Below, in pieces: positions 9,499 to 64,000 of a stretch of DNA of 64,000 nt. The position numbers and the translations under genes are program-made. The notes beneath the pieces are model-generated. The model had not been told where the DNA came from and did no database searches. It saw only the letters and a list, made by a program, of their open reading frames with translations. The DNA comes from Candidatus Omnitrophota bacterium (GTDB lineage Bacteria; Omnitrophota; Gorgyraeia; Gygaellales; JBFMHM01), in contig JBFMHM010000007.1 of the NCBI GenBank assembly GCA_040753015.1, positions 2,076-66,075 on the forward strand, written 5' to 3'. Positions within the stretch are counted from its first letter, which is position 1. Every line of letters starts with the position of its first letter.

Positions 9499-9504
9499 GT
9501 CTTA

Positions 9505-20016: not shown

Positions 20017-20177
20017 TAATCTGCGTAATGTAGCGTGATGAGCACCTTGAGCAACAGCTAATTCTTCGATATTTGTAATTCCTTGAAGTTGGTATTTTTT
20101 AGGAAGGGCTTTATGTGTTAAGTCGGGATAACTAATATTCCAATGATGTTCATTGGCAAGCTCACTAATCGCATTGG

Positions 20178-24137: not shown

Positions 24138-24294
24138 ATCTTATTATATGTTAATTATACCTTATAAATAGCCTAAAAACAAGGCTCTGGAGGCTTTTTT
24201 TGAAAGCGGTTACAACCAATTAGTATTTACATCATAACTTATTATATATCAGGTAGTTAAGCAATCATTAACTACTAATATAAAACTAATAGAA

Positions 24295-29830: not shown

Positions 29831-29850
29831 TGAATACCTTCTAAGAATAG

Positions 29851-29924
29851 TGGAGCTGAGGGGGATTGAACCCCTGACCCCTTGCATGCCATGCAAGTGC
29901 TCTCCCAGCTGAGCTACAGCCCCA
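29851..29924 (-). tRNA. tRNA-Ala (anticodon GGC), 74 nt, no encoded CCA
   Basis: Hand-folded cloverleaf: acceptor GGGGCUG/CAGCUCC with a G3:U70 Ala identity pair; D stem GCUC/GAGC; anticodon stem CUUGC/GCAAG with loop AUGGCAU; T stem AGGGG/CCCCU with loop UUCAAUC. Confidence 0.9.
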
Positions 29925-29993
29925 TTAATTAATTTTATTAGTTGATTTTTGTTATTTTAGAATATAAAATAGCTTGCGTCAATAAAATATATT

Positions 29994-30076
29994 GCCGAAG
30001 TGGTGGAATGGCATACACGTCCGCCTCAAAAGCGGATAGGCTTGCGCCTGTGAGGGTTCGACTCCCTCCTTCGGCA
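29994..30076 (+). tRNA. tRNA-Leu (anticodon CAA), 83 nt, long variable arm
   Basis: Hand-folded: acceptor GCCGAAG/CUUCGGC with discriminator A; D stem GUG/CAC; anticodon stem UCCGC/GCGGA with loop CUCAAAA; variable stem GGC-uugc-GCC; T stem GAGGG/CCCUC with loop UUCGACU. It is followed by a T7 run. Confidence 0.9.
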
Positions 30077-30081
30077 TTTTT

Positions 30082-41255: not shown

Positions 41256-41891
41256 TTAGGGGAATAAAGGGTTCTCCTCTATTAATTTATGTTTAATCAT
41301 GTTGTAATAACTATCATCCCCATATTCCAACTTACGAAATATTGCCCAACTAACAAAATCAACCGCTTGTAAGCTTTTCTCTTCTGCTGGATTTTTTATC
41401 TCTATATTCAATTTTAATTTGTGAGTATTACCAATTTGATTTTTTAAATAAGAACTAAAATTTTCATTTAAGAATTTATTAGTTTCACGTTTAGATGCAA
41501 TTAAATGAATTGTTTCATTAAGTGGTATCAATTTTTTTGTAATTATTCTATCTAAAAGAATATTTGTTACATAATTATAGAGAACAGATTTTTCGTTTTG
41601 TAATTTTATATAAACTCGTTTCTTATTTAAATAAATTGTCATTAAATCACAATCTTTTGATGCGATTTTCTTTAATAATCGCTGTCGCGTAATAGGTTCT
41701 TCTTCTGTAGCATGTAAAACACTATTAACATTCTTATGCTTATTTCTTAAAATACGATGTGCCAATCTGACACACTTTTCTATCTGACGCTTATTTCTTG
41801 TAAATAAAAAAGTAATTACGAAGAATTTTGTAGTTTTTTTCTTAGAAAAATCAAAACCTAAATCGCCTGATTCATCTAAATAAATATACAT
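41256..41891 (-). CDS. DUF3800-like protein (211 aa)
   Basis: N-terminal 'MYIYLDESGDLGF' DUF3800 signature. Confidence 0.5.
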   Translation of the reverse strand: MYIYLDESGDLGFDFSKKKTTKFFVITFLFTRNKRQIEKCVRLAHRILRNKHKNVNSVLHATEEEPITRQRLLKKIASKDCDLMTIYLNKKRVYIKLQNEKSVLYNYVTNILLDRIITKKLIPLNETIHLIASKRETNKFLNENFSSYLKNQIGNTHKLKLNIEIKNPAEEKSLQAVDFVSWAIFRKLEYGDDSYYNMIKHKLIEENPLFP

Positions 41892-43336
41892 TAAATAAAA
41901 GGTATACCTTTAGTAAAACACTCTTCCACTTTAGGCACAACTTCCATATAACTTCTGCAGCAGGCGCCAACAAGAGGGCTTGTATAACCATAAAGCATAC
42001 GATGCACTCGTTCTGGCTTTGAATAAAATTCTCTATTCATCCATCCGGCAAACCGGTTTAGGTCATCTCTGGATAGATATTTTGTGGGCATAACTGCATG
42101 GGCCATATCATAAAACCTGAAATCTTTTATTTCTCTACGTGGACTATTTTTCATTTCTTCCCAAAATTCTGTACCCGGATACGGAACTAAAATCTGCACG
42201 GTCATAAGATCAGGGTCTAACCAATCAAGAGTTTCAGCACGTTTTTTTATTGTTGTTTCATCGTCTTCCCAAAAACCAATCATTACGGTGCCACAGGTAG
42301 AAATATCATTTTCACGAAGCTTAGTAATTGCCTCTTTTATTTGAGCAAGAGTTATATTTTTGCCCATCGCCTTAAGTTTTTCGTCGGTTTCTGCCTCAAT
42401 GCCGATTAAGGTAAGAATACAGCCCGACTGCCTCATTTTTTTATAAAGATGGGTTTGTTCAACAAATTTATCAGCACGCCCCAAAAACATCCAAGAAAAT
42501 TCGAGCTTTCTTTTCAAAATTTCATCACAAAATTCTTCGATACGCTCGGTTTGGCTGTTAAAATCATCGTCTTGAATCTCAAACATCTGAGTACCATATT
42601 TCTTTACTAAAAGCTCTGCCTGATCTGCAATGCGTTTACCGGATAAGCCGCGCCAACGGCCAACATTTTCTTTACGACGGCCGTCATACTGATTCCATTG
42701 AAAACAAAAATAACATCTACCAGCACAACCACGGCTAGTTACAATTCTTACCGCCTTCGGCCAATAAGTATATGAATAATATTTATCTAACGGAAATAAA
42801 TGATATGCCGGTAAGGGCAGGCTGTCTAAATCATCAATAATCGCCCTTGGCCCATTCAATATAACGTTATCTTTTTCTCTAAAACAAAGCCCGTCGATAA
42901 CTCGAAAATTAGCGTTGGGCTTTGCAAGTTCTTGAGTTAATTCTAAAAGAGTATTCTCTCCTTCGCCAATTACTGCAAAATCAATCTCTGGACATTCTCC
43001 TAGGGACTCCTTGCTTAAGGCGTTAAAATGCATTCCACCGCAGACAATTTTTACATTTGGCATAGCTTTCTTGATTTTTCTTGCCGCATCATATATACAA
43101 TGCACCCAAGTTGTTCCGCAACCCATGCCGATTAAATCAGGATTTCTTTTTTTAAGCTCTTCAATCATTTGATCATGGTTTAAATCAAATGCCGGACAAT
43201 CTAATACATCAACTTCGACATCCGTGGTTTTCTCTAACAAGTATGCGGCTAATTGTGCAAAACCCGGATAAATAGATCTCATTTTACCAAAATATACCCA
43301 CATGCCCATCGGCGGAGTTAAAAATGTAATTTTCAT
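41891..43336 (-). CDS. B12-binding radical SAM enzyme no. 1 (481 aa)
   Basis: N-terminal cobalamin-binding-like domain, 'VTSRGCAGRCYFCFQW' CxxxCxxC. It is paralogous to 52049..53515. Confidence 0.8.
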   Translation of the reverse strand: MKITFLTPPMGMWVYFGKMRSIYPGFAQLAAYLLEKTTDVEVDVLDCPAFDLNHDQMIEELKKRNPDLIGMGCGTTWVHCIYDAARKIKKAMPNVKIVCGGMHFNALSKESLGECPEIDFAVIGEGENTLLELTQELAKPNANFRVIDGLCFREKDNVILNGPRAIIDDLDSLPLPAYHLFPLDKYYSYTYWPKAVRIVTSRGCAGRCYFCFQWNQYDGRRKENVGRWRGLSGKRIADQAELLVKKYGTQMFEIQDDDFNSQTERIEEFCDEILKRKLEFSWMFLGRADKFVEQTHLYKKMRQSGCILTLIGIEAETDEKLKAMGKNITLAQIKEAITKLRENDISTCGTVMIGFWEDDETTIKKRAETLDWLDPDLMTVQILVPYPGTEFWEEMKNSPRREIKDFRFYDMAHAVMPTKYLSRDDLNRFAGWMNREFYSKPERVHRMLYGYTSPLVGACCRSYMEVVPKVEECFTKGIPFI

Positions 43337-45347: not shown

Positions 45348-46670
45348 TTAATTTATCACCCAATACCCGCCCTTATCTGGGCCAATACGTTTAATAATTC
45401 CCTCTTTCTTCATCTTCGCAATATGCCATTCTATTCCCTTAAGTGTAAGACAAGAACTTTTTGCAAGAACAGATATTGTTATTGCCGAATTTTCTTTAAT
45501 TAGGCGCAATATTTTCTCCCTAGTTTTCTCCCTAGTTTTCTCCCTAGTTTTATCTAAACCTTCTACAGTCTTTGCTTTTAAAAAACATACGCACAAGCCA
45601 CCTGTTATTTCTGAGAATTCAGGTTCAGGAAGTTTTGCTTGTCGGCATTTTTCTACAATCTTTATTGTACCCCTACCCCATGATTCGATAAATCCAGCTT
45701 TAAAAAATACATCGGCTAAAAGCTCATTACGCGGGCAAGATAAGTGAGGCTTTTTTAACTTATCACAAGTAATTTCGCGAGGAAGTTTACCAATATTCCA
45801 TAACCATAATTTATTATCATAGACTCGTATTTGCGTATGAGGACCTGTATAATCACGGTGTATAACTGCATTAATTATTGCCTCGCGTAAAGCATCTTCA
45901 GGATAGATAAGATCTTCTTTTCGATATATGCCTTCATAATAAAATCTATTTTCTAAATATTTTACTTTTAGAATCTCTAGCGTCTTTTCAACTTGTTCAA
46001 AAATATTTCCTTCGATGATATCAGTACTAATAACTTCGCTTTCCGATGCAAATCGTCCAATTTGAATAAATGCTGAAGTAAAGTATTTTTTAGGATTTTT
46101 ACCAAAAAGAAGAATAGCTGCGCGTTTTAATTTTCCTTTTTCCATAAGATTTAGTTTTTCTAAAATAAGTTTAACGTTTTTTTCACGATATATAAACGGA
46201 AATCTTGTTTTAGCTAATTGCTGAAAATACCTGATAGCTTTAATACTAATATCTTTGGATGAAGCCCTTGGCTCAATTATATTATCCCAAGATGTACCAG
46301 CACAAGAAAGAATAAAATGAGATAATTCTATTCCTTTCAATTCAGAAGTTGTGCTGCCAGAACGAATATAAAAGTTACCTTTATAAGAAATTGCGGCTTT
46401 GTATTTTTTAACAATTATTTTTATAATCGGACCATGTGTTTTTTTAATATCTTTTATATCGACAACAATGCCTAAAATATCTCTTATTTTATTTGGAATA
46501 TACTCTAAAAGTTTGTTTACATCTCTTAAGCCAACAACTCTACCTTCGTCATTAATACCTATATACAATATGCCACCACTTGTATTTGCAAATGCGCATA
46601 TTGTTTTAAGCGCTTCATCACTCCACTGTTCTTTAAATTCTATATTTTGATTTTCGTTTTTATAAATCAT
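45348..46670 (-). CDS. AlbA_2 (Schlafen-like) DNA-binding / HATPase-like / C-terminal HTH regulator ('RecG C-terminal-like ATP-dependent DNA helicase' family)
   Basis: N-terminal 'NIEFKEQWSDEALKTICAFANTSGGILYIGI' AlbA_2 signature. Contains an in-frame (KTRE)x3 repeat. Confidence 0.7.
   Translation of the reverse strand: MIYKNENQNIEFKEQWSDEALKTICAFANTSGGILYIGINDEGRVVGLRDVNKLLEYIPNKIRDILGIVVDIKDIKKTHGPIIKIIVKKYKAAISYKGNFYIRSGSTTSELKGIELSHFILSCAGTSWDNIIEPRASSKDISIKAIRYFQQLAKTRFPFIYREKNVKLILEKLNLMEKGKLKRAAILLFGKNPKKYFTSAFIQIGRFASESEVISTDIIEGNIFEQVEKTLEILKVKYLENRFYYEGIYRKEDLIYPEDALREAIINAVIHRDYTGPHTQIRVYDNKLWLWNIGKLPREITCDKLKKPHLSCPRNELLADVFFKAGFIESWGRGTIKIVEKCRQAKLPEPEFSEITGGLCVCFLKAKTVEGLDKTREKTREKTREKILRLIKENSAITISVLAKSSCLTLKGIEWHIAKMKKEGIIKRIGPDKGGYWVIN
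45512..45547 (-). repeat. Perfect 12-bp x3 tandem repeat (ttttctccctag), in frame, encoding TREKTREKTREK
   Basis: Seen directly in the sequence; a partial fourth unit follows. Confidence 0.9.
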
Positions 46671-47708: not shown

Positions 47709-48941
47709 TTAAACTTTTCCTAGCACTAATACTGCATTTATGCCGCCCCGGCCGCGCGAAATTATAAGTGCTTTATCTATCTTTGTTTCACGCGCCTGGT
47801 TAGGTACATAATCTAAATCACACTCTGGATCAGGCGTTTGATAATTTATTGTTGCAGGGGCTAAGTTATTTTGCATTGCTAATATTGTACTAATTGTATC
47901 GACTGCTCCTGACGCACCAAGCAGATTTCCAAACATTGCCTTTGGAGCACTCACGGGGATTTTTTTAGCTCTATCTTTAAATACTTTCTTAATTGCTCGT
48001 GTTTCAGAAATATCTGCTTCATAAGTTGCAGCACCATCTGCGCAAATATAGTCAATTTCATCTGGAGTTACATTTGCATCTTTTAAAGCAAGCTCAATTG
48101 CAGCAGCAAGGCCAGCACCATTAATATCTGGCTTAATCCTATCTACTCCATCACAATTAGTTGCAAAACCTAAAATTTTTGCATAAATTTGCGCGTTTCT
48201 CTTTTTGGCGCGTTCCAAACTCTCTAAGATTAATACGCCAGAACCTTCTCCAATTGCAAAACCGTTCCTATCTTTGTCAAATGGTTTATAGGCAGTTTGC
48301 GGGCTATCATTACCATCTGACAACACTCCTGAAGTATTACAGCATAAAAGAGCATAAGGAGTAACTGGCGCCTCCATACCGCCAGCCAAAATTAAATCAA
48401 GTTTATTTTGTTTCAAAACTTTTCTAGCATAACCTATTGCCTGTAGAGAACTTGCGCGATCGCTAACAACTGTTTTACTATAACCTTTAATTTCATAATA
48501 TATTGAGATTTGCCCTTGCGGCGCAGCAGGAAACCAAGCGCTTGCCATATAGGGGCTTACACCTTCACGGCCCTCTAGATAAAGATCTCGCAATTCAGTT
48601 TCTGCATAAAGCCATCCGCCGATAGCATTACCCATAAAAATTCCGGTCCTATCTTTATTCTCATTTTGCATATCAATATTTGCATCGGTTAAAGCAGCCT
48701 CCGAAGCAACTAAAGCCATATGAGAAAATAAATCAATTTTTTTAAGCAGGCGCTCGGATAAATGGGTATAAGTATCCATGCCTTTAACTACGCCGGCAAT
48801 ATGCGATCTATAAAGCGAAGCATCAAACCGTTCAATTTTTGATATGAAAGACCTGCCGAATTTTATATTTGCCCAAAATTGGCGCTTACCCACACCTGAT
48901 GGGCTTACTACACCTAAACCTGTAATAACAACTTCATTCAT
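47709..48941 (-). CDS. Ketosynthase-like protein lacking the catalytic Cys/His/His (chain-length-factor / KS-beta-like)
   Basis: Thiolase-fold KS homologue. At the active-site position it has 'VVSDRASSLQAIGYA' where the partner has 'ISTGCTAGSDSVGFS'. Its His positions read 'ICADGAATYEAD' and 'MFGNLLGASG' where the partner has 'NAHGSSTRQND' and 'MIGHPLAAAN'. Confidence 0.75.
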   Translation of the reverse strand: MNEVVITGLGVVSPSGVGKRQFWANIKFGRSFISKIERFDASLYRSHIAGVVKGMDTYTHLSERLLKKIDLFSHMALVASEAALTDANIDMQNENKDRTGIFMGNAIGGWLYAETELRDLYLEGREGVSPYMASAWFPAAPQGQISIYYEIKGYSKTVVSDRASSLQAIGYARKVLKQNKLDLILAGGMEAPVTPYALLCCNTSGVLSDGNDSPQTAYKPFDKDRNGFAIGEGSGVLILESLERAKKRNAQIYAKILGFATNCDGVDRIKPDINGAGLAAAIELALKDANVTPDEIDYICADGAATYEADISETRAIKKVFKDRAKKIPVSAPKAMFGNLLGASGAVDTISTILAMQNNLAPATINYQTPDPECDLDYVPNQARETKIDKALIISRGRGGINAVLVLGKV

Positions 48942-50197
48942 TCATATCTCCTTAAAACAAGCGATGAGTGGATCCCAGAAAACCCGCTGCTTGTTTTTAA
49001 AATTGTATTAACTTTTTTGGATATCGCAACATTCGGTATATAATTTAAATCGCATAGCGGATCCTTTACCTCTTGATTAATCGTCGGAGGGAGTATATTT
49101 CTTTCAAAAATTAAACAACAAATAACTAATTCGACTGCATTTGCTGCAGCAAGCGGATGGCCAATCATCGATTTAAAAGAACTTATTGGAAGTTTATAAG
49201 CATAGCTGCCCAAAACTGATTTATAAGCACTTGTTTCAAAAATATCATTTTGTCTGGTTGATGAGCCATGGGCATTAAGATAATCTATTTCTTCTGGTTT
49301 CACTTTAGCATCTTCCAAAGCAAGTTTCATACAATTTTCCATCGGCTTACCATCTTGTGGTAAATCAGTCATATGATATGCATTGCAAGTTGTACCAAAA
49401 CCTAAAATTTCAGCATATATATGTGCGCCGCGCGCTTTAGCGTGATTTAATTCTTCTAAAACCAAAATTCCACAACCTTCACTTAAAACAAAGCCGTCTC
49501 TTTCTCCGTCAAACGGACGAGATGCTTTTTTGGGAGCACTATTTCTAACTGATAAAACGCTGATTACATCAAACGCGCCAAATGTAATCGGGGTGATGGG
49601 CGCTTCACTTGCCCCAGCAATCATAATATCTGCTTCATTATTTTGAATTGTCTCAAAAGAGAACCCTACGGAATCGCTTCCAGCAGTACATCCTGTTGAA
49701 ATCGTAGTACAAATTCCTTTTAGGCCATACCTACCCGAAATTTCCGAAGACGGCGTGTTAAACATTGCTGCGTCATATAAATCAGGCCTTGCCTTAGATG
49801 GATCAATTGCATCAACGCCATTATTTGTAACACGTAAAAATTCTTCTTCCATATACTTTGTACCACAGATAGCATTAGCTAAAGCAACACCTATTCTTGT
49901 TTTATCTATCTTATTAAAATCAATTTTAGAATCAATTAACGCTTCTTTTGCACTAACAACAGCAAACTGAACATATCTATCCATACGGTTAATCTCATCA
50001 TTGGTCAATCCTAATTCCTTTGGATTAAAATCGAACGCTTGAGCTGCAATCTTTGTGTTAAATTTAGATACATCAAAATTTGTTACTAGATCTACTGCTG
50101 AAACTCCTCCTGACATTCCCTTCCAAGCGTTTTCGCGGCCAATACCGTTTGGTGAAACTACACCTATGCCCGTAATAACAACACGACGTTTAGACAT
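48938..50197 (-). CDS. Beta-ketoacyl-ACP synthase (KS-alpha type, catalytic)
   Basis: Active-site Cys 'STGCTAGSD' and His motifs 'AHGSST' / 'GHPLAAA'. It overlaps the downstream CLF-like gene by 4 nt. Confidence 0.85.
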   Translation of the reverse strand: MSKRRVVITGIGVVSPNGIGRENAWKGMSGGVSAVDLVTNFDVSKFNTKIAAQAFDFNPKELGLTNDEINRMDRYVQFAVVSAKEALIDSKIDFNKIDKTRIGVALANAICGTKYMEEEFLRVTNNGVDAIDPSKARPDLYDAAMFNTPSSEISGRYGLKGICTTISTGCTAGSDSVGFSFETIQNNEADIMIAGASEAPITPITFGAFDVISVLSVRNSAPKKASRPFDGERDGFVLSEGCGILVLEELNHAKARGAHIYAEILGFGTTCNAYHMTDLPQDGKPMENCMKLALEDAKVKPEEIDYLNAHGSSTRQNDIFETSAYKSVLGSYAYKLPISSFKSMIGHPLAAANAVELVICCLIFERNILPPTINQEVKDPLCDLNYIPNVAISKKVNTILKTSSGFSGIHSSLVLRRYE

Positions 50198-51787: not shown

Positions 51788-52086
51788 TTACTTATTCCAA
51801 ACCCATATTTTTTATAATCGAATCCTGCTTCTTCCATCACTTTTATCATCATTGCCTCAAACGGCTTTGGCACATCATTAAAAAAGGCCTTTACAACATC
51901 TTGTTCTTCTACTATGGAAGAATTTCTCTCTTGCGCAAGCTTAATCGCCTTCCCAGAAACAAGGCTTTCGGCAACCTTACGATGAAACAGAGGCATCTTA
52001 CTAATCATTAAATCAAATTTTCTCTTTGTAACTTCATCCCAGGTAATATCAGACATATAATTCTCCTTTTGTTGCAGATGCCTCAA
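51784..52086 (-). CDS. Small hypothetical protein (100 aa), possibly a PCP_red-like domain as found at the C-terminus of B12-rSAM BchE-type enzymes
   Basis: The ORF overlaps both neighbours (translational coupling). The family assignment is tentative. Confidence 0.35.
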   Translation of the reverse strand: MRHLQQKENYMSDITWDEVTKRKFDLMISKMPLFHRKVAESLVSGKAIKLAQERNSSIVEEQDVVKAFFNDVPKPFEAMMIKVMEEAGFDYKKYGFGISK

Positions 52087-53515
52087 ACTTAGAGATATTA
52101 TTCATAAAATCTTTAACGCAAAGTTTTACAAGATCAGAATAATTACTCTCCATAATTCTATGTATCCTAGAGGCTTTAGAGAAAAATTCTCTCATACACC
52201 AAGCACCTAACCTGCCAAGCTCTTCAACAGACAAATGATTTGTTGGAATTACCGGATGTAAGAAATCCCAAGTTTTTAAATCAATTTTTTGGGGATCAAA
52301 TAATTTTTGTTTTAACGCCTTCTTCCAAACAGGTGATCCGGGAACAGGTGTTACAAAATCAATTGCTAAAATATCCGGGTCAGCTTCTTCAGCAAAATTA
52401 AACCTATCTTTAATGCGCGCCTCGCTATCATCTTCAAGACCAATTAATATTGTACCAACAGTTGCAATATCGTTTTTACGTAGCTCTTCGATTGTTTGTT
52501 TGATTTGATTAACTGTAATACCTTTGCCGATACGTTTAAGCTCGTCATCACTAGAAACCTCAATACCAACCAACCCCATAAAAAGCCCAGCTTTTTTCAT
52601 TAAACCAAATATATCAATTTGTTTTACCCAATCATCGGCACGGCCTAAAATTACCCATTTAATTGCCAGCCTACGGCGCAAAATTTCATTGCAAGTCTCA
52701 ATAACCATATTTTTATCGACGTTAAAAGCATCGTCCTGAAATACTACAACTTTTATACCAAATTCTTTTTCTAAATATTCCAACTCATCTACGATCTTAT
52801 TACCTTTTTTCGAACGCCAAGAAAGAAAATCGCGAGGAGATCTTGGGTCATACTGTGACCATTCGTAACAAAATGAGCACCCGCCAGGGCAACCCCTTGA
52901 CGTAGAAAGCTCTGCAAATGGCTTCCAATAAGTATGCCCCACATATTTATCCATAGGAAATAAATCATATGCTGGCATAGGTAAAATATTTATATCTCTA
53001 ATTAACTCTCTATGTTTTCCAGCTATAATTTGATTGCCCTTACGAGATGCTAAACCATTAATACCTGAAAAATCTGTCTTTTTATCTTCTAATGCCTTAA
53101 CTAATTCTTCTAATGTAAGTTCTGCCTCTCCAATCATAACAAAATCTATATAAGAATGGCCTTCTAAAGTTTCTTTATAAATAGATGAATACCATAGGCC
53201 ACCAACAGCAATTTTAATATTCGGCATCATCCCTTTTATTGCCTTTGCAATTTCATTAAAATGCCAAATAACCGCAAGCCCGCCAGTCGAATGCAAAATC
53301 TCACCCAGCACAACTAAATCTGGATTATAATTTTTTACTTTTTCTAAAATTTGATCTTTACTAAGATTATCTGCCCGGCCGTCAATAACGCTAACCTCGC
53401 TAATTTTTTTCTCTCTTAAATATGCTGCAAGCTGTGCATAATATTGATTAGGTGCGCGATGTTCACCATGAGTTGCCCAAGCCCCAATGTTTGGCATAAC
53501 AAATAAAACTTTCAT
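52049..53515 (-). CDS. B12-binding radical SAM enzyme no. 2 (488 aa)
   Basis: 'STSRGCPGGCSFCYEW' CxxxCxxC and an N-terminal B12-binding-like domain. It is paralogous to 41891..43336. Confidence 0.8.
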   Translation of the reverse strand: MKVLFVMPNIGAWATHGEHRAPNQYYAQLAAYLREKKISEVSVIDGRADNLSKDQILEKVKNYNPDLVVLGEILHSTGGLAVIWHFNEIAKAIKGMMPNIKIAVGGLWYSSIYKETLEGHSYIDFVMIGEAELTLEELVKALEDKKTDFSGINGLASRKGNQIIAGKHRELIRDINILPMPAYDLFPMDKYVGHTYWKPFAELSTSRGCPGGCSFCYEWSQYDPRSPRDFLSWRSKKGNKIVDELEYLEKEFGIKVVVFQDDAFNVDKNMVIETCNEILRRRLAIKWVILGRADDWVKQIDIFGLMKKAGLFMGLVGIEVSSDDELKRIGKGITVNQIKQTIEELRKNDIATVGTILIGLEDDSEARIKDRFNFAEEADPDILAIDFVTPVPGSPVWKKALKQKLFDPQKIDLKTWDFLHPVIPTNHLSVEELGRLGAWCMREFFSKASRIHRIMESNYSDLVKLCVKDFMNNISKFEASATKGELYV

Positions 53516-55171: not shown

Positions 55172-56146
55172 TTATTCTACCGGTACATTTTGCCACAACT
55201 CAAAAAGCCTGGCAAACTGAGCATACCAACGCGATATCTTGGCAAAGTCACCTTGTAATTTTAATTTTTTCTGGGTAGTTGCAACAAACGGGTCAAGCTC
55301 TCTGTTAAAAATCATCTTCCAGTAGCTCTTTGGCCCAGAAATTAAAAATTCTACTTTTTCATCATCGCCGACATTTATAATTTTTCCCTCTCTAAACTCA
55401 AAACTATAAACTTTATTATCTTCGTCTAATTTTACAGCTAAATTTAAAGTTAAATTTGTGCGCTTGCCTTCAGACTGAAATTTATCATCGGTATTTACCA
55501 AACGGACAATTTCATCAATCTGCTCTTTCGAAAAAAGTTCATATCTTTTCGTTGAGATATTTTTTTGCACAGTTTCTTTTGCTTGTCCTTGATTAGAATA
55601 TAATTTTTTAATTATATCCATTTCAACCATTTCATCTAAAATTTGGATTAGATAAAAAGCATCTTTTAAAGTTTTACCGATTGCCACAACTCCATGATTT
55701 TTTAAAACAACAATATTGCTTTTTTTAAGCGCCTCGATTACTGGATTAATATCGCTAACTGTTGGCGTAAGCTGTTCAATTACCGGAACATCGCCAACAT
55801 AAAGTTTTGTTTCAAAAGTAAGTGGGGTAATTTTGTCATTTACGCTAAAATACGCCACAACTTTTGGCGAATGCGAATGCACAACGCAATTTGTATCAAT
55901 ATTTTTATAAATACCTAAATGCAGCGACAATTCTGATGTAGGATTTTTTTTACCATCGAGCAATTCTCCGGAGAGATTAATTTTTGCAATATCATTATCG
56001 AATAACTCACCCAAAGAACTATCGTGCGTAGTAATAAATACACTATCATTATCTTTAGCGCTGATATTTCCCGAGCGACCACAGACAAGATTCTTGCCCC
56101 ACAATAAGCTACCGATTCGTATTATATTTTGCTTGATATCGTCCAT
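55172..56146 (-). CDS. Class II (FucA/MtnB-type) aldolase fused to a C-terminal SCP2-like domain
   Basis: N-terminal domain has 'GNISAKD' and 'VVHSHSP' Zn-ligand histidines. The last ~110 aa look SCP2-like ('LAVKLDEDNKVYSFEFREGKI...KLKLQGDFAKI'). Confidence 0.7.
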   Translation of the reverse strand: MDDIKQNIIRIGSLLWGKNLVCGRSGNISAKDNDSVFITTHDSSLGELFDNDIAKINLSGELLDGKKNPTSELSLHLGIYKNIDTNCVVHSHSPKVVAYFSVNDKITPLTFETKLYVGDVPVIEQLTPTVSDINPVIEALKKSNIVVLKNHGVVAIGKTLKDAFYLIQILDEMVEMDIIKKLYSNQGQAKETVQKNISTKRYELFSKEQIDEIVRLVNTDDKFQSEGKRTNLTLNLAVKLDEDNKVYSFEFREGKIINVGDDEKVEFLISGPKSYWKMIFNRELDPFVATTQKKLKLQGDFAKISRWYAQFARLFELWQNVPVE

Positions 56147-56149
56147 ATA

Positions 56150-56268
56150 GTTTTAAATCCCAATTATCCAATGCCCAATGACAAATTAATTCCCAATTCA
56201 CCAATTACCAATTGAATAATTGGACATTGGTCATTTATTTGACATTGGGATTTGGTCATTGGTCATTT
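56150..56268. repeat. CCAAT/ATTGG-rich imperfect palindrome (~120 bp)
   Basis: Left arm 'cccaattatccaatgcccaatgacaaat...ccaattcaccaattaccaattg'. Right arm 'caattggacattggtcatttatttgacattgggatttggtcattggtcatt'. Confidence 0.6.
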
Positions 56269-56271
56269 TGT

Positions 56272-57195
56272 TTATATCAATACTGCCTTTGTTACTAATT
56301 CCCTTGGCGTTACGTCAAATCCCGGATAATACGCCTTAATTCCCTTTGGTGCAATGCGAATATTTTTTATTTTTGTAATCTCTTCGCCACTTCTAATTTC
56401 AATTGGAATATCCTTGCCTGTTTTTATATTAGGGCTTGGATGTTGTGTTAATACATAAAAAGGAATATTAAAATATTTTGCTAAAATTGCAATTTGAAAT
56501 GTTCCAATTTTATTTGCAAAATCACCGTTCATTGCCGAGCGGTCAGAGCCAACCACAACCATATTTACTAAACCCTTTTCCATAACATGCGCCACGGCAT
56601 TATCCGTAATTAAAGTTACATCAAAACCAGCACGCGCCAGTTCCCACGCAGTTAAACGTGCACCTTGAAAATATGGCCGGGTTTCTGTTGCGATAAACTT
56701 AACTTTTTTACCCGCTTTTTTGCAAAAATTTGCCGCCTCAACTAATTCACCGCTAACATTACAATGTGTTAATACAGTTGCTCCATCGGGAATAAAAGAA
56801 GCAAGCGTATTTGCACGTGTTAAACGTTTATTTTTTATATCAATAAGCATTCCCTCAATACTTCTTGTCAAATCTTTACCTTCAGCGTGCCACTTTAAAA
56901 ATAGAGATGTAATGTCACTAAAAGGAAATGTTGGCCGCGATTTATTTAAAGCTACAGCAACTTTTTTTAAATGTTCTGTGCTACTATCTTTTTTAAATTC
57001 AAGTAAAAATGTATATAACACGCACAAATATTGGCCAAAGGCGCGCGTCTTCATTGTCTTAATTGCACGCACAACATCCAAATAATTCTTTGCCTTAATA
57101 TATTTAACTTTATTTGGAATTAAAGTTTCATCGAGAATATAGAGTGCATTCCCTTTTAAACTAACCGGCCAAAAAAGCGGTGAGTGTTTTGTCAT
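56272..57195 (-). CDS. mtnA: MtnA/eIF-2B-family sugar-1-phosphate isomerase (5-methylthio- or 5-deoxy-ribose-1-phosphate isomerase)
   Basis: 'LTHCNVSGEL', 'TETRPYFQGARLTAWEL', 'VVGSDRSAMNGDFANKIGT' and 'IPFYV'. Confidence 0.8.
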   Translation of the reverse strand: MTKHSPLFWPVSLKGNALYILDETLIPNKVKYIKAKNYLDVVRAIKTMKTRAFGQYLCVLYTFLLEFKKDSSTEHLKKVAVALNKSRPTFPFSDITSLFLKWHAEGKDLTRSIEGMLIDIKNKRLTRANTLASFIPDGATVLTHCNVSGELVEAANFCKKAGKKVKFIATETRPYFQGARLTAWELARAGFDVTLITDNAVAHVMEKGLVNMVVVGSDRSAMNGDFANKIGTFQIAILAKYFNIPFYVLTQHPSPNIKTGKDIPIEIRSGEEITKIKNIRIAPKGIKAYYPGFDVTPRELVTKAVLI

Positions 57196-57941
57196 TTTCC
57201 TGCTAATGTTTTTACTGCTGCCAGCGATACTTTCACTATAGAGCTCTCAGCATCATAATATTTTGGGTTAATGAAACCAAGCTCGCCAGTAATTAAGTTA
57301 TCACTTACAGCTAAGATGCATCCTGCCCTAACCTGGTTTAACTTTGCAATTGTAAGCATTGTACTTGAAACCATATCTACCGCAATTGCCCCTTTTACAC
57401 GTTTCTCTTCAACAAGTTCTCTTGTTTCGCGAAGCAATGCATCAGTCACCCACACAGTGCCTAAATGATATTTTACACCTAAACTTTCACAAGCTTTAAC
57501 TAAAGCGCCTGTCACATTTTTATCTGCTTCTGATTTAAAATCTTCCTTAACATAATAAGGAGTTACTCCATCCCCCCTAATTACATCTTTTACAATTACT
57601 ACATCGCCAACCTGTATTTTTTCATCCATTGCACCGCAAGAACCGGCCCTTATAATATTTTTAGTACCTGCAGCACAAAGAATTTCTGCACAAATTGCCG
57701 AATCAGCAGAATACCTGCCGCCGTTTCCCGTAGTAATTTTTATTCCCTCATATTCACCGTTATACATTGTGTAATCAAAAAATGAAAACTTTTTTACTGT
57801 ATTAGTTAGATTTTTTAATACTGCTTGTGAACGCTCTACAGTGCCAGGAATAATTGCATATTCTGCTAAATCTCCCGGGCGTAAATTTAACATATAAAGC
57901 ATTTCTTTTGCTGACATATGAACATCTTTCTGCATCTGCAT
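57192..57941 (-). CDS. Family-1 nucleoside phosphorylase (PNP/UDP/MTA phosphorylase fold)
   Basis: PNP_UDP_1-like 'IIPGTVERSQ...KITTGNGG' pattern, 249 aa. Confidence 0.7.
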   Translation of the reverse strand: MQMQKDVHMSAKEMLYMLNLRPGDLAEYAIIPGTVERSQAVLKNLTNTVKKFSFFDYTMYNGEYEGIKITTGNGGRYSADSAICAEILCAAGTKNIIRAGSCGAMDEKIQVGDVVIVKDVIRGDGVTPYYVKEDFKSEADKNVTGALVKACESLGVKYHLGTVWVTDALLRETRELVEEKRVKGAIAVDMVSSTMLTIAKLNQVRAGCILAVSDNLITGELGFINPKYYDAESSIVKVSLAAVKTLAGK

Positions 57942-57956: not shown

Positions 57957-58677
57957 CTATTTCAATTCTTCCTGTATTGGTAATTTTAATGCACTTGCAT
58001 CAGGAATTTTCCCAGATAAGTACTTAGGTAATTTTTTAGTAAGATAATATTCAGCGATACCTACTGGTTTTTTAACACTACGCAATGCGTACTCTACAAC
58101 GATATCATCTTTATCTGCACATAAAATAATACCTATTGACGGATTCTCATCTTTTAACTTTATTTGCTCATCTAAAAGTTGCAAATAAAAATCCATTTTA
58201 GCAGCATATTCTGGTTCAAATTTACCCGTTTTAAGTTCAATCGCCACAAGAGACTTTAATTCACGATTAAAAAATAAAAGGTCTATGAGAATATTTAATA
58301 TAGAATTCACGCTCTCTATCATTAGCTATTTTTTCCATAATTAAGAGATTATGCCCCCATGGTATTTCTGCAACAAGTTGTTGCAGAAATGGTTTATTTT
58401 TATATTCTTCGTAGAATCTCCGCATATTCCAAACATTTCTTTCCGAAAACCCATAAGTTTGTGGAAATACCTTTTTCAAATCGCGGGCAAGCAATACAAT
58501 AACATTATCACCCCATTTATATTTTTGCTGACGTTCGAAAATACTTTTACCAATATCCCAATAAAGTTTTATAAGCTCTTTATTAACCGTCTTTATTGCC
58601 CGAATGCGTGAAGCAACAATACGCGATTTAATCTCACTCAAAAATTTAATATATTCTTTATTAACAATACTACTCAT
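57957..58677 (-). pseudogene. Frameshifted DUF1016/YhcG-family PDDEXK nuclease, split into two overlapping ORFs
   Basis: ORF 58267..58677 is the N-terminal part ('...EREFYIKYSHRP'). ORF 57957..58322 carries the nuclease core ('LVAIELKTGKFEPEYAAKMDFYLQLLDE...IGIILCADKDDIVVEYAL'). They are in different frames and overlap by 56 nt. Confidence 0.65.
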
Positions 58678-58689: not shown

Positions 58690-60189
58690 TTATCCCTTTA
58701 ATGCTTTTTTATCTATCTTATCTGTTCTTGTTTTGGGTAACCTATCACGAATTTCTATATAATGCGGTACTTTAAAATTTGCTAAATGTGAACGGCAAAA
58801 ATGCCTGATATCATCTTCGGATAGTTTTACGCCTTCCTTAAAACTTACAACCGCTTTAACTACCTCGCCTCGTAACTTATCCTCTACGCCAATTACTGCC
58901 ACCTCATTAATCTCGGGAATTTTGTGGATTACATTCTCAACTTCTGTAGCATAAACAATCTCCCCTCCTACCTTAATCATTTCTTTAATTCGGCCCATAA
59001 TATAGAGGTAGCCATCTTCATCAATTTTACCTAAGTCTCCGGTATGAAACCAACCGTTACGCATTACACGTGCAGTTTCTTCCTCGTCTTTGTAGTAGCC
59101 AACCATCACCGCCCAGCTTCTCATTGTAATTTCGCCAACTTCACCACACGACAATTCCTTATCATCTTCATCAACAATTTTTAATTCCACCCAAGGAGCA
59201 GGTAAACCAACAGAGCGAACTTTCGGGCTGCCCATTGGTATTACTGTGTTTGGCGGTGAGGTTTCGGTCATTCCCCAACCATGTAATAATTTTGCCTTTG
59301 GGCAATATTGCATAAACCTCTGTAAAACTTCTGGAGAGCTAGGAGCACCAAAAACATTTACCCAGCGAATACTAGATAAATCATATTTTTCGAATTCTTT
59401 CAACTGTAAAAGTGCAATATACATCGAGGGAACAAGATGAAAGCAGGTAACTTTGTAAGTTTCGATATTGCGTAAAAATTCAATTGGGCTAAAACGGTCC
59501 ATTACAATTAAAGTAATGCCATAATAAATGCAATTTTGCAAATAAACCAAACCGCCAAAATGTGTCAACGGCAATGCGCAAAGCTTAACATCTTTGTCAG
59601 ATAAATCTACAAAATAATCCATTGCTTGAGGCGAACCATCAAGATGCCTATAATTTAAAAGCACACCTTTGGGCCGTCCGGTTGTGCCAGAAGTATAGAA
59701 AATTAAAGCATTATCTGTTTCTTCTACTTTAACATTCGGTTCTTTAATCTCACCACGGCTTAAAAAATCTGAGAATAAATAAAATCCATTATGTTTTTCT
59801 TCATAAGAAACAATTACGTCTTTAAGGGTAGGAATTCTCTCCTTAAGGCTCAACACCGTTACACCGTCTTTTGGCCGAATAATTAAAAGTTTTGCCTCGG
59901 AGTGCGTAATACAAGAAACTAATTCTTCTTCTTTGAGCATATAATCAAGAGGAACAACTACCGCACCTAAACAAAAAAGGGCTAAGTAACTATAAATACA
60001 CTCTAGAGAATTAGGCATAAATAAAGCGACTTTGTCGCCTTTCTGAATACCAATTTCTTGCAGACTATGGCAAAATTTGTAAACTTGCTCTAAAAGTTCG
60101 CCAAAAGTAACGGTTTTTTCTTTAAATACTAACGCGGGTTTGTTTGGATACTTTTTTGCTTTATCCTTAAGTATTTCTTTAACTTGCAT
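58690..60189 (-). CDS. AMP-dependent acyl-CoA synthetase/ligase
   Basis: 'IFYTSGTTGRPKGV' AMP-binding motif, 'GWGMTE' and 'HTGDLG'. Confidence 0.85.
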   Translation of the reverse strand: MQVKEILKDKAKKYPNKPALVFKEKTVTFGELLEQVYKFCHSLQEIGIQKGDKVALFMPNSLECIYSYLALFCLGAVVVPLDYMLKEEELVSCITHSEAKLLIIRPKDGVTVLSLKERIPTLKDVIVSYEEKHNGFYLFSDFLSRGEIKEPNVKVEETDNALIFYTSGTTGRPKGVLLNYRHLDGSPQAMDYFVDLSDKDVKLCALPLTHFGGLVYLQNCIYYGITLIVMDRFSPIEFLRNIETYKVTCFHLVPSMYIALLQLKEFEKYDLSSIRWVNVFGAPSSPEVLQRFMQYCPKAKLLHGWGMTETSPPNTVIPMGSPKVRSVGLPAPWVELKIVDEDDKELSCGEVGEITMRSWAVMVGYYKDEEETARVMRNGWFHTGDLGKIDEDGYLYIMGRIKEMIKVGGEIVYATEVENVIHKIPEINEVAVIGVEDKLRGEVVKAVVSFKEGVKLSEDDIRHFCRSHLANFKVPHYIEIRDRLPKTRTDKIDKKALKG

Positions 60190-60305: not shown

Positions 60306-60722
60306 CTAAATATCAATAATATTTTTTTTAATAAATTTCTCAATTGCTTTTACGGTTTCATCTTTTAATTGTGGTGGGCTTTGAGCAATCCAAACAGTAA
60401 AGTTATATAGTCCTTGAACATCTACTTCTATCCATTTTTTATTTCTATATAAGAGAACTAATAAACTAGTCAAAGCAATCCTTTTATTGCCGTTCCGGAA
60501 AGGATGATTCTTAATCATCAGATAAAAGAATATACTTGCCTTGGAGATCAAGCTAGGATACAGAGATTTACCACCAAAACTTTGGAAAGGTACGGCTAAA
60601 CAGCTCTCTAGGATATTTACAAAACGTGTAGAAAAATCCGGAATTGGTTCGTTGAAAGAAAGCATGTCTTGCGCCATCTCAAAAGCAATGAATTCTATTT
60701 CTTTAACATTAATTTGCTTCAT
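60306..60722 (-). CDS. doc: Doc-family (Fic-fold) toxin
   Basis: 'HPFRNGNKRIALTS' Doc motif; 138 aa. Confidence 0.8.
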   Translation of the reverse strand: MKQINVKEIEFIAFEMAQDMLSFNEPIPDFSTRFVNILESCLAVPFQSFGGKSLYPSLISKASIFFYLMIKNHPFRNGNKRIALTSLLVLLYRNKKWIEVDVQGLYNFTVWIAQSPPQLKDETVKAIEKFIKKNIIDI

Positions 60723-60979
60723 TCTTTTCCTAAAAGCCTAAGAACTTCACCATAATCTTTGATTACCTTCTTAACCGCGTTCTCAATTTCTGTTTTGTCT
60801 TCTTCTTTTAACTCTTGGCTAAATATAGCCGTAAGCTCCTTTTTAGAAACAGCATAGTTTCTACCAATTCTTATTGCTTTTATTTTTCCAGCCTTAACTT
60901 TTTTAAAAACAGCTACTCTTGTAATTCCCAAAATTTTTGCAAGCATCGGTAATGTTATATACTCATTTTTCTCTTCCAT
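60719..60979 (-). CDS. HTH (excisionase/MerR-like) DNA-binding protein; putative antitoxin for Doc
   Basis: 'ITLPMLAKILGITRVAVFKKVKAGKIKAIRIG' HTH. It overlaps the doc start by 4 nt. Confidence 0.6.
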   Translation of the reverse strand: MEEKNEYITLPMLAKILGITRVAVFKKVKAGKIKAIRIGRNYAVSKKELTAIFSQELKEEDKTEIENAVKKVIKDYGEVLRLLGKE

Positions 60980-61087: not shown

Positions 61088-64000
61088 TTAGAAGGAAAGT
61101 GTCGTAAGGTCTATACCGCCGTTTTCGGCAACTTCTCTGGCTACTTCAGAATTTACGGCTATTAATTGTCCATGATAAACAACGGTGGATATCTTCTTAC
61201 CTAAACCTGTTTGATCTAAAGCAAGGTTTAAGTTTGCCTGCGTTGCTTCATTTGAAACAATTACGCTTCGTAAGCCAACATTTTCATCTAGCTCGCCATT
61301 TAAAGCTGCAACTATCTCTTGCTCATTAGCGCCATCAAATAATGGTATCTCTTTGCCTTGAAATATAAATTCTCTTACAACCCTAAATTCTCTACCAGCC
61401 ATTTCAAACCCAGGTAATGTCGAAACGGCTAATCTTTCTAGCGGAATAACTAATTCGATAGTTGTGCCCCTTGTTAATCTATTGCCTAACAAAATATCTA
61501 TATTACTATTTCTTTCTCCAACTTTTTCTAATTTATTCGACGGAGAACCATCAATACAACTACTGTCTATAATAATCGCACCGTTATAATCACGTAAAAC
61601 CTTCGTCTGTATAAAGAATAAAAAACCAAGTCCGCGCCTTCCCATAAGGCCATCATCAAGACGCCCTCTTTTACCATGGCCTAACCAGCCTAATCTATGC
61701 ATCTCTGCAATATTATCTAGATTTTCTGCAAGTAGAAACAAATCGTCTAACTCTATACCACATCCATCATCACTAACTTCAATAATAAGATCTTTGCCTC
61801 TTATGTACAATTTAACTTTAATTATACTGGATGTTTTCTTTTTTAGCTTAAGATTTACTTCTCTGCTAGCATCGTATGCATTTGCAATAAGCTCTCTAAC
61901 AATTTTCTCAATATCATTTCTCTGATTATTACTAAACATTGTTAACTTTTCTTTTAAAACATTTATTTTAAAATATTTATCTATAAAATTTTCTCCAACA
62001 CTATCGCCGTCAAAAGTTACGATCTCACCTTCATCACCAAATATATAATCTTTATATACATCTCCACCTATATATAATCTTTGATCACTATCAAATCTTA
62101 CTTCAACAACATCTTCAAATATTAGTATTTCTTCTTTAGGAATTTCTTTTCTGGTGATTCGCATATTCCCCTCAGCATGTGCAATAATAGAGCCGGGAAT
62201 CCTCTCAAGCCGAGCTTGCTGTAATTTACGTCTATATTCAATAGCTAATCTAATAACTACCCCTAAAACTTCCCTATAATCACCAGCCATATGTAGACCA
62301 TCTAAATCAGTGCGTGAGCCTGCACCAATTTCATTTAATGCGGCGATAAGTTGATCGAAAGATTCACTATAATGTTCATCGGCGGTGAGGATTCCAACCA
62401 CTGCCTTTGCGCGGTCTTGCGCTGAAGTATTTGCTAATCCTGGGCTATTAAGCCTATCTATAATTTTTTGCTTTAACCCAGCTGTAAATTCTGGCGCAGA
62501 CATTTGATGCTCAAGAAACAAACTATTATCTTCTATCCTAAAATGTTCTTCGGCAAGGCTAGGCTCATCAGCAATACCATAGGTTTTAAACCATTCCTCT
62601 TCTTTATCTCGATAAAGTTTTTTTATTGCTGCTGAATCATCCGCTTCAAGCTCAGCACGTAAATTTGCAAGTGCCTCGTTTAATTCTATATGGTTTATTA
62701 TTAATGGTAATTTACCCCTCTTCTCTAAAATGCGCCTTCTTACTTCATGCTCGACCTCATGATAAATTACAAATTTTTTACGCGCCACTCCCTCAGTGGT
62801 ATTATCATAATATCCGTCATCAAAAACAATCACATCATCGTTATAATGATAAGAAATTCCTGCGAGTTTTTTTATACCATTTGGGGCCGCTTCTCGATTA
62901 ACTATATCTACAGAATAAACTTCTACTGTGCCTTGGCTAGTACCTACATCTAATACAGAATTAATTTTACAGATTATTATCTTTGACGTTTCTTTATCTG
63001 GCAGAACTATATAATTATGTTTTTTTAGGATAGAATTAAGAGCATCCAGCGTGCGAGGGAATCTTCCAACGAAAACAATATTATCAGCACTAAATTCTTT
63101 TTCAAAATTATCTAACAGCCGCTTTAATTCATTAAGTTTTTTATCATGGGTAATTGAAAGAGTAAAAACTCTATCGATTTCCCTGCACAGTAAACGCACT
63201 GTCCTTCTAAGGATTAATTCTGAAATATAGATTGTAAAATTAAGCAAATATTGTTCTAATAGAAGAATGGGCCCTGTCAATGAAGGCATAATACTTGCTT
63301 GGGCTAACTGGCTTAGGCGCTCACTTTCCATACCTATAGCATGATTTATTTCGTGTGAGTAGAGTTCTTTGCGGTCAGATAAACTTAGTTGGCTTAATGC
63401 CGAAAGATTTGCATGTAATGTGTTGCCTTGAACAAACATTATGTTATTAGCGTATTGTGTGTCTTCAACTGTAATATGCGTAATACCGTGCTGCGCTAAG
63501 TATGCCTCAATTTCGGCTTTAATTCCAGGCCCTTTTTGATCCCTAACTTGCCCTACATAAATAAACTTTTGATCCGGAGGATCAACATATATTAAAGCAT
63601 GTATTTCATCTATAAGGCTTTGGTCTGTAATTGGCCCGTCCACCAATAGATCAAAATGTTTTTTCATTAAGTGAGGAATAACCTTAAAATTTTTTCTTTC
63701 ATGCTCTTCTAATGCAACAGCAACTACCCTCATTCCAGAACAATGCTTCTCTAGCTCTAAAACAAGTTTACCGAAAGCCTCTGAAGAAATACCCTGGCTT
63801 TCTAAAAAATTGGTACTCTGCCTTTGACCTATAGACCCAAGATCTAACTGAACCAACCTCTGAGATGAAAATATTTTAAATTTTAAAATAAACTGAAACT
63901 CATTAAGCCTTACATTTCCAGTTACCACTGAAAGAAAGCGTTCTGTATTTTTTAGATGAGCTACTTTATCTACAATAACTGTATAGACATCGCGACCATT
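61088..64000 (-). CDS. Large GHKL-ATPase-containing protein (>970 aa; 5' end beyond the window)
   Basis: C-terminal HATPase_c: N-box 'IVRELIANAYDAS', G1 'VSDDGCGIE', G2 'GRRGLGF'. Two HExxH motifs ('YSHEINHAIG' and 'VIYHEVEHEV'). The frame stays open from 63928 to 64000 (NGRDVYTVIVDKVAHLKNTERFLSVVTGNV...), so the true start is upstream of the window. Confidence 0.75.
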   Translation of the reverse strand, partial: NGRDVYTVIVDKVAHLKNTERFLSVVTGNVRLNEFQFILKFKIFSSQRLVQLDLGSIGQRQSTNFLESQGISSEAFGKLVLELEKHCSGMRVVAVALEEHERKNFKVIPHLMKKHFDLLVDGPITDQSLIDEIHALIYVDPPDQKFIYVGQVRDQKGPGIKAEIEAYLAQHGITHITVEDTQYANNIMFVQGNTLHANLSALSQLSLSDRKELYSHEINHAIGMESERLSQLAQASIMPSLTGPILLLEQYLLNFTIYISELILRRTVRLLCREIDRVFTLSITHDKKLNELKRLLDNFEKEFSADNIVFVGRFPRTLDALNSILKKHNYIVLPDKETSKIIICKINSVLDVGTSQGTVEVYSVDIVNREAAPNGIKKLAGISYHYNDDVIVFDDGYYDNTTEGVARKKFVIYHEVEHEVRRRILEKRGKLPLIINHIELNEALANLRAELEADDSAAIKKLYRDKEEEWFKTYGIADEPSLAEEHFRIEDNSLFLEHQMSAPEFTAGLKQKIIDRLNSPGLANTSAQDRAKAVVGILTADEHYSESFDQLIAALNEIGAGSRTDLDGLHMAGDYREVLGVVIRLAIEYRRKLQQARLERIPGSIIAHAEGNMRITRKEIPKEEILIFEDVVEVRFDSDQRLYIGGDVYKDYIFGDEGEIVTFDGDSVGENFIDKYFKINVLKEKLTMFSNNQRNDIEKIVRELIANAYDASREVNLKLKKKTSSIIKVKLYIRGKDLIIEVSDDGCGIELDDLFLLAENLDNIAEMHRLGWLGHGKRGRLDDGLMGRRGLGFLFFIQTKVLRDYNGAIIIDSSCIDGSPSNKLEKVGERNSNIDILLGNRLTRGTTIELVIPLERLAVSTLPGFEMAGREFRVVREFIFQGKEIPLFDGANEQEIVAALNGELDENVGLRSVIVSNEATQANLNLALDQTGLGKKISTVVYHGQLIAVNSEVAREVAENGGIDLTTLSF

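Follow-up and report, generated by a model that had tools for sequence, protein, structure and literature searches.

Three GHKL ATPase domains and a GNAT-like module in a candidate membrane-tethered mosaic protein of Candidatus Omnitrophota

In Hsp90, MutL, GyrB and MORC proteins, the binding of ATP shuts a lid and drives dimerisation of the N-terminal domains. Human sacsin repeats a partial Hsp90-N homology region three times along one large chain and has been proposed to be ATP-driven (PMC9880540), MORC proteins are defined by a GHKL ATPase combined with an S5 module (PMC2292703), and in long proteins of Omnitrophota the domains PF02518, GNAT and methyltransferase co-occur (bioRxiv 10.64898/2026.06.07.730766). 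Here we describe a gene of a Candidatus Omnitrophota bacterium whose 3' part lies on the minus strand at positions 61088-64000 of a 64,000-nucleotide stretch of contig JBFMHM010000007.1, hereafter the window. The encoded protein has 1,656 amino acids and three GHKL domains in one chain. It could be a lineage-specific mosaic tethered to the membrane, whose GHKL domains act as ATP-driven clamps and thereby control or scaffold acyltransferase-like and possible zinc-hydrolase modules, a reading to which we give a probability of about 0.4.

The complete gene, its three GHKL domains and its hydrophobic segments

In the window, the gene shows 970 open codons between the edge at nt 64000 and its stop codon at 61088-61090. 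With the base composition of the window one stop is expected per ~13 codons, and the probability of 970 stop-free codons is ~1e-35. Their translation matches exactly residues 687-1656 of NCBI protein MEW5759008.1 (1,656 amino acids, Candidatus Omnitrophota bacterium), annotated as 'MAG: ATP-binding protein' (MAG, metagenome-assembled genome). By this identity, 61088..64000 contains the C-terminal 970 codons plus stop, that is 59% of the protein, and the 5' 2,058 nt (686 codons) lie outside the window. The original prediction, made from the window alone, had noted that the frame was still open at nt 64000 and expected a longer protein, which the additional 686 codons bear out; the whole chain reveals three GHKL domains and not a standard sensor-kinase or MutL architecture. 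The full open frame covers 4,968 nt in DNA of 35% GC content, which excludes an origin by chance, and its GC content agrees with that of the surroundings. MEW5759008.1 forms a singleton cluster, found on one 68,296-bp contig.

The order of domains is GHKL-1, one or more hydrophobic segments, GHKL-2, a hydrophobic stretch of 44 residues, a divergent GNAT-fold module, an orphan region of 535 amino acids with two HExxH motifs, GHKL-3, and a tail of 115 amino acids. The Pfam model HATPase_c matches the window part at residues 694-855 with an E-value of 2e-7 and 31.8 bits (gathering score 26.4), and the full protein in three stretches with 119.9 bits and an overall E-value of 9e-35. These stretches correspond to GHKL-1 (full-length residues ~60-225), GHKL-2 (~340-530) and GHKL-3 (~1380-1541; 61436..61921, minus strand). 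Furthermore, HATPase_c_3 matches the full protein (E 9e-14) and HATPase_c_2 matches GHKL-1 (E 2.8e-8, 34.3 bits; cut-off 27.4). In GHKL-3, the N box RELIANAYDA is found at window residues 702-711 (nt 61868-61897), the G1 box SDDGCGI at residues 743-749 (nt 61754-61774), the G2 box GRRGLGF at residues 787-793 (nt 61622-61642), and the closing strand TRGTTIELVIPL at nt 61439-61474, all on the minus strand. An ExxxNAxDA N box of the catalytic type, a DxGCGI G1 box and a glycine-rich G2 box are intact in all three domains. With a profile score over the threshold and all three boxes present, the protein is assigned to the GHKL (Bergerat-fold) ATPase superfamily. Self-comparison of the full protein aligns the three domains with one another at 30-33% identity (E-values from 4e-11 to 5e-19), GHKL-3 being 30-31% identical to GHKL-1 and GHKL-2 (E 4e-11 and 5e-19, respectively), and judging by this similarity they are paralogues. 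That nine ATP-binding boxes remain intact despite divergence to 30% identity indicates purifying selection.

Among solved structures, those closest to GHKL-2 are the N-domains of HtpG, Hsp90 and TRAP1 (E 4.7e-6), and the best PDB match of GHKL-3 is the N-domain of TRAP1, with a non-significant E-value of 0.14. The top NCBIfam model is HtpG, with 61 bits against an equivalog cut-off of 371; histidine-kinase and anti-sigma models follow close behind, and all stay far under their cut-offs (kinase models 25-58 bits against 300-850, MutL 27 against 180, top6B 31-43 against 274-381). A profile of the three GHKL domains retrieves short proteins which carry Pfam HSP90 and, in some of them, SACS (37-52 bits). 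NAxDA in the N box is the signature of Hsp90, MutL and GyrB, while kinases read NAxxH/K. On the basis of the solved relatives, the top NCBIfam model, the HSP90/SACS proteins found by the profile and the NAxDA box, we consider with moderate confidence that the three domains are Hsp90-N-like.

No HisKA/DHp, HSP90 middle, MutL, gyrase, Topo VI or SACS domain was found by Pfam at E<=1 in the window part or in the full protein. In the full protein this includes PF00183 (HSP90) and PF25794 (SACS), although the latter matches some of the nearest GHKL relatives; DNA_mis_repair, MutL_C, DNA_gyraseB and the Topo VI families were likewise not found by Pfam. As the original prediction had described, this large GHKL protein thus belongs to none of the classic families and has neither a histidine-kinase DHp domain nor a gyrase, MutL or Hsp90 middle domain. 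The same prediction had placed a Bergerat-fold ATPase with N, G1 and G2 boxes at the C-terminus; fold and boxes stand, but the domain is not at the extreme end, since 115 residues follow it (61091..61435, minus strand). This tail shows no S5 signal by sequence and no PDB, Pfam or NCBIfam match.

Hydropathy analysis shows transmembrane-type stretches at full-length residues 256-275 and 535-578, the second of which, with its 44 residues, could hold a helical hairpin. The earlier statement that the protein has no transmembrane segments holds for the window part but not for the full protein. The peptide ELPLRKPRG ends both GHKL-1 and GHKL-2, before each hydrophobic stretch, and therefore a unit formed by a GHKL domain and a hydrophobic segment looks duplicated. 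In the first unit, a weaker hydrophobic stretch, FVLERTAIVPFIPIF, precedes the clear helix. Two hydrophobic hairpins may thus tether the protein to the cytoplasmic membrane, in which case all soluble domains would be cytoplasmic. This arrangement agrees with the interpretation of long Omnitrophota proteins whose only such feature is transmembrane segments, which have been read as anchored in the inner membrane with their bulk in the cytoplasm (bioRxiv 10.64898/2026.06.07.730766).

A GNAT-like module and an orphan region with two HExxH motifs

The window part begins with a module at 63536..64000 on the minus strand (window residues 1-155; full-length ~625-845), whose conserved block begins, according to BLASTP, ~25-60 residues beyond the window edge, at residue ~623-662. 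An exhaustive phmmer search of 1.84e9 representative proteins found six other proteins, all of which match only window residues ~1-152. The AlphaFold2 model of the module, built from the resulting 7-sequence alignment, has a predicted local distance difference test (pLDDT) score of 82 and a predicted template modelling (pTM) score of 0.76. The top 50 PDB matches of this model in Foldseek are all GNATs, with GCN5/PCAF first (probability 1.0, E 4e-4, template modelling score ~0.5) and bacterial GNATs next. In the model, the family consensus LRGxGL opens a long helix after a beta-hairpin and the consensus PxLMxKYF follows the next strand, positions that resemble those of GNAT motifs A and B. The corresponding sequences in the protein are LESQGISS (nt 63782-63805) and PHLMKKHF (nt 63653-63676), both on the minus strand. 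The module is thus predicted to have a GNAT fold and, being invisible to GNAT sequence models and hhalign, would represent a very divergent family of that fold.

Two of the other carriers are short stand-alone open reading frames (ORFs). The remaining ones are a partial protein of Ca. Tantalella remota (>2,252 amino acids) with a methyltransferase and three HExxH motifs, the partial Omnitrophota protein HPM42469 (>1,565 amino acids) with a canonical GNAT and two HExxH motifs, a 1,764-aa ORF of Omnitrophota STB_166 with an FHA domain, and a 3,717-aa ORF with an ABC1 kinase domain, L005 (= L006), at 47-11200 on the plus strand of a 526-kb contig labelled Planctomycetia, where the module sits near the C-terminus. 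A profile of the module run against a database of 5.8e9 sequences returned only its own members P0002 and P0005 and no new relative. According to these searches, the module appears restricted to a few long mosaic proteins, plus the two short ORFs, of Omnitrophota and relatives.

The module is followed by an orphan region of 535 amino acids (window residues 156-690; 61931..63535, minus strand), predicted to be mostly helical. The exhaustive phmmer search gave no match past residue ~152, no Pfam or NCBIfam family was found in the region, and self-comparison showed no internal repeat. Its single-sequence AlphaFold2 model is unusable (pLDDT 37). The original prediction had counted more than 600 residues of unknown sequence before the ATPase: the first ~155 of these now show a GNAT-like fold, and the next 535 indeed have no relative.

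Both HExxH motifs of the orphan region that had been pointed out earlier are present. The first, HEINH, spans window residues 216-220 (902-906 of the full protein; nt 63341-63355), and the second, HEVEH, window residues 414-418 (1100-1104 of the full protein; nt 62747-62761), both on the minus strand. By composition, the expected number of HExxH motifs is 0.027 per 970 amino acids and 0.045 for all 1,656 residues; the two observed are more than chance would give. The 198 amino acids that separate them are close to the spacing in two other proteins with the GNAT-like module, P0007 (two motifs 202 amino acids apart; 0.019 expected) and L005 (two motifs 182 amino acids apart; 0.081 expected), and pairs 182-202 amino acids apart thus recur in three carriers. 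P0004 has three HExxH motifs, which are M50B-like and embedded in transmembrane segments (0.087 expected). The hydrophobic, strand-like FVIY precedes HEVEH, and NEAL (nt 62663-62683) comes 24 residues after it; in P0007, NEIA comes 18 residues after HELRH. The distance between HEVEH and NEAL is compatible with a gluzincin-type third ligand, and a zinc site at the HExxH motif is plausible.

The PDB search gave one faint match over HEVEH (3pnn, E 0.05, not significant). It is to an unrelated 'conserved domain protein' that is uncharacterised and does not conserve the motif. A resemblance to DUF4157/eCIS_core-like zincins was not supported by Pfam searches with short segments, which gave no match for the protein described here and an E-value of 0.26 for L005. 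In L005 both motifs read 'VLYHExxH', and the first of them gives this faint match, a hint that these mosaic proteins may share an HExxH module which the searches do not detect.

The genomic neighbourhood

Downstream of the GHKL gene, after a gap of 108 bp and with a promoter-like site at 61105-61077, lies a pair of minus-strand genes (60306-60979) that encode an 86-aa HTH_17 protein and a 138-aa Fic-fold protein with the motif HPFRNGNKR of the Doc kinase type, and which overlap by 4 nt. The two are probably a self-contained toxin-antitoxin pair. A functional coupling between the GHKL gene and this Fic gene was considered and is unsupported; the Fic gene encodes a Doc-type motif, is paired with an HTH gene of its own and has a promoter-like site. 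The ten downstream genes include no response regulator and no restriction-modification or defence gene. DUF1016_N (58267-58677) and a YhcG PDDEXK nuclease (57957-58322) are found on the minus strand as overlapping ORFs in different frames, which looks like a YhcG-like nuclease gene that is frameshifted (pseudogenised) or was split by a sequencing error.

The rest of the window is ordinary chromosome with genes for SecA, LeuRS, ComEC, xanthine-dehydrogenase-type, fatty-acid and methionine-salvage functions, almost all on the minus strand and with a uniform ~35% GC. Of the 44 ORFs of at least 150 amino acids, 42 are on the minus strand, and one of the two exceptions is clearly spurious. With this strong strand bias of its genes and a GC skew that stays negative from end to end and never switches, the window lies on a single replichore. 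Two tRNA genes adjoin within 29850-30077, tRNA-Ala(GGC) on the minus strand and tRNA-Leu(CAA) on the plus strand. The former overlaps the LeuRS ORF called from a TTG start (27359-29896), and the true start of LeuRS is therefore probably further downstream. Two radical SAM enzymes of the B12-binding kind and a tandem pair of beta-ketoacyl synthases (41891-43336, 47709-50197 and 52049-53515, minus strand) are accompanied by a polyketide-cyclase-like protein, a cyclase, an amidohydrolase and an AMP-binding enzyme (58690-60189), and may form a lipid or secondary-metabolite cluster. Consecutive genes of the methionine-salvage type are located at 55172-57941 on the minus strand and encode a member of the MTA phosphorylase family, an MtnA-like isomerase of the IF-2B family and a class II aldolase-SCP2 fusion. 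A DUF3800 protein and a protein with Schlafen AlbA_2, HATPase_c_4 and a winged helix-turn-helix (41256-41891 and 45348-46670, minus strand) stand among these metabolic genes; both architectures occur in defence or mobile contexts.

Two giant minus-strand ORFs within 12613-25524, of 2,467 amino acids (12613-20016) and 1,319 amino acids (20178-24137), match no Pfam family. The only trace in the former is a sub-threshold M48-like match at residues 972-998. The 19-aa peptide LGESNPEYQTVLGHEITEA occurs twice in the giant ORFs, ~955 residues apart, and directly upstream of them is a Fic protein of 409 amino acids, whose motif HPFFDGNGR is the canonical one of AMPylases. A shared 'YHEV' module had been proposed to tie the GHKL protein to this giant-protein island. 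The tie is a chance one: BLASTP between the GHKL protein and the two ORFs gave best E-values of 0.88 and 0.09, elsewhere than at the motif, neither ORF contains an HExxH, and the 'YHEV' of the 1,319-aa ORF is not within one. The results remove a false lead, the GHKL locus being neither a defence island nor linked to the giant ORFs.

Possible functions and comparison with known systems

As a membrane-tethered mosaic, the protein would be an instance of a habit of Omnitrophota, in which regulatory and enzymatic domains (HATPase, GNAT, methyltransferase) are fused in long chains; we regard it as neither a two-component sensor, nor a DNA-repair protein, nor a recognisable defence protein. By analogy with other GHKL families, ATP binding would close the lid and the GHKL domains would pair within one chain or between chains. 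Such a nucleotide-driven clamp might switch or scaffold the acyl-CoA-type transferase fold and the possible zinc hydrolase site located between GHKL-2 and GHKL-3. Several observations weigh against this proposal. The first hydrophobic region contains one clear transmembrane helix only, according to hydropathy, and a single crossing there would put GHKL-1 and GHKL-2 on opposite sides of the membrane, which would be odd for ATPases. The clamp mechanism is borrowed from other GHKL families, and the middle or transducer domain with which these supply a catalytic Arg or Lys is undetected here. GHKL-1 scores about equally with histidine-kinase and anti-sigma-kinase models. The GNAT assignment rests on the 7-sequence model and a template modelling score of ~0.5; Pfam and NCBIfam GNAT models do not detect the module, its hhalign comparison with the canonical GNAT of P0007 is not significant, and its motif-A-like loop (LESQGIS) has E where the family has R. 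In addition, the HExxH regions of the protein, P0007 and L005 gave only motif matches of 8-24 amino acids in pairwise BLAST (E>0.4), and Pfam searches with short segments found no peptidase family around the motifs.

The last two results, together with the unusable AlphaFold2 model of the HExxH region and with 3pnn as the sole faint structural match over HEVEH, which is not a peptidase and lacks a conserved motif, also bear on a more specific function, that of a membrane-bound machine for ATP-dependent protein quality control or processing, analogous to FtsH, whose Hsp90-like domains hold or remodel a client that the HExxH zinc site cleaves. Membrane segments, three Hsp90-N-like domains and an unexpected HExxH pair in one chain, the recurrence of such pairs in relatives, and the surroundings of the motif (FVIY before HEVEH and NEAL at +24, and NEIA at +18 of HELRH in P0007) speak for it, but as neither a peptidase family nor a peptidase fold is detected and the HExxH regions of different proteins do not align significantly, we hold it to be unlikely. 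Bolder, and slightly less likely again, is a self-contained 'bacterial sacsin' tethered to the membrane, in which three Hsp90-type clamps drive or gate the acyltransferase-like module and the zinc-hydrolase site, so that protein processing or quality control would run on GHKL and not on AAA+ chemistry; if true, it would put to use the orphan region of 535 amino acids together with a GNAT subfamily that only Omnitrophota and their relatives have. A SpoIIAB/RsbW-type Ser/Thr protein kinase or partner-switching binder that regulates a membrane partner would explain the missing DHp domain (Pfam), the match of the anti-sigma-kinase-type model HATPase_c_2 to GHKL-1 (E 2.8e-8) and the NCBIfam scores of 45 bits for spIIAB and 32.5 bits for RsbW. 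These scores, however, fall far short of the cut-offs (135 and 145), the N box has NAxDA where kinases have NAxxH/K, the best solved and database relatives are N-domains of Hsp90/HtpG, and the downstream genes include no STAS/anti-anti-sigma or sigma gene, so that this function too seems unlikely to us, as unlikely as the processing machine.

A decaying or functionless fusion, whether it arose as an accident of evolution or through chimeric assembly of the MAG, would account for a singleton cluster on one contig, for the failure to find an orthologue in searches that included 1.84e9 representatives and for more than 500 amino acids without relatives. It is improbable in view of an open frame of 4,968 nt beyond chance at 35% GC, the selection indicated by the nine intact ATP-binding boxes and a GC content in agreement with the surroundings. 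The original prediction had drawn a link to MORC/paraMORC-like defence or epigenetic systems, and a defence or DNA-manipulating ATPase of this kind would suit a large non-classical GHKL protein matched by HATPase_c_3, a model that covers the MORC/MutL/Hsp90 type, and lying near mobile or toxin genes (the Doc pair and the broken YhcG nuclease). The link was not upheld: Pfam, NCBIfam and PDB sequence searches detect no S5, nuclease, helicase or DNA-binding domain, PADLOC gives no match for the protein, a scan of viral contigs with the profile of the GNAT-like module finds no relative, the genes downstream are the Doc pair and metabolism, and membrane anchors and a GNAT-like module do not fit, which makes it very improbable. 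The least probable of all is a sensor histidine kinase of a two-component system whose input region is unusual. Transmembrane segments are present and several NCBIfam histidine-kinase models match the GHKL domains with 25-58 bits, but these scores are 5-30 times under the cut-offs, HisKA, HisKA_3, His_kinase and HWE are all absent at E<=1, three catalytic domains per chain are not a kinase layout, and there is no response regulator among the ten downstream genes.

GHKL orphans are common in MAGs. Nevertheless, a bacterial triple Hsp90-N-like layout with duplicated membrane hairpins, a cryptic GNAT-fold family and a recurrent HExxH pair all seem to be undescribed in the literature searched; mosaics with PF02518 and GNAT have already been reported in long Omnitrophota proteins (bioRxiv 10.64898/2026.06.07.730766). 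If the three GHKL domains cooperate, the protein would be a compact bacterial model for repeated Hsp90-like ATPase domains in one polypeptide, a cooperation that is still an open question for human sacsin, and an accessible entry point, at 1.6 thousand amino acids, into the long mosaic proteins of Omnitrophota. Furthermore, the GNAT-fold module, which none of the Pfam or NCBIfam models used here picks up, might serve to define a new family.

With the N-domain of Hsp90/HtpG/TRAP1, the protein shares the Bergerat fold, the ExxxNAxDA and DxGxG boxes, a glycine-rich G2 box and a closing RGT-type strand; it differs by the lack of a middle or C-terminal dimerisation domain, by its three copies and membrane segments, and by an identity of only ~25%. 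Its closest analogue in layout appears to be sacsin (human SACS) rather than MORC, as both have three Hsp90-N-like regions per chain and some of the nearest GHKL relatives carry SACS. This resemblance is one of layout and not a demonstrated homology: the protein is bacterial and would be membrane-anchored, it has no UbL, DnaJ or HEPN domain, and because it lacks a SACS domain it is not placed in the sacsin family. MORC/paraMORC proteins likewise have a GHKL ATPase outside the four classic families, and HATPase_c_3 matches the protein, but S5 is undetected in it, no restriction-modification or defence genes lie downstream and PADLOC shows no match. FtsH also combines a membrane anchor, an ATPase and an HExxH in one chain; nevertheless, the ATPase described here is GHKL and not AAA+ and no M41 peptidase match was found, so the analogy is functional only. 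The likeness to GNATs lies in the predicted fold of window residues 1-155 and in consensus motifs at A/B-like positions, whereas GNAT profiles and hhalign do not detect the module and its motif-A-like loop reads ESQGIS in place of Q/RxxGxG/A, a pattern that the family consensus LRGxGL does fit. Finally, in comparison with the long mosaic proteins of Omnitrophota, the protein is short, with 1,656 amino acids against a class of at least 10,000, and a triple GHKL is not described in the accessible part of the preprint; both nonetheless belong to the same phylum and share the domain set, the membrane anchoring and a distribution as mostly singleton clusters (bioRxiv 10.64898/2026.06.07.730766), and the GNAT-like module is common to the protein and several such long proteins.

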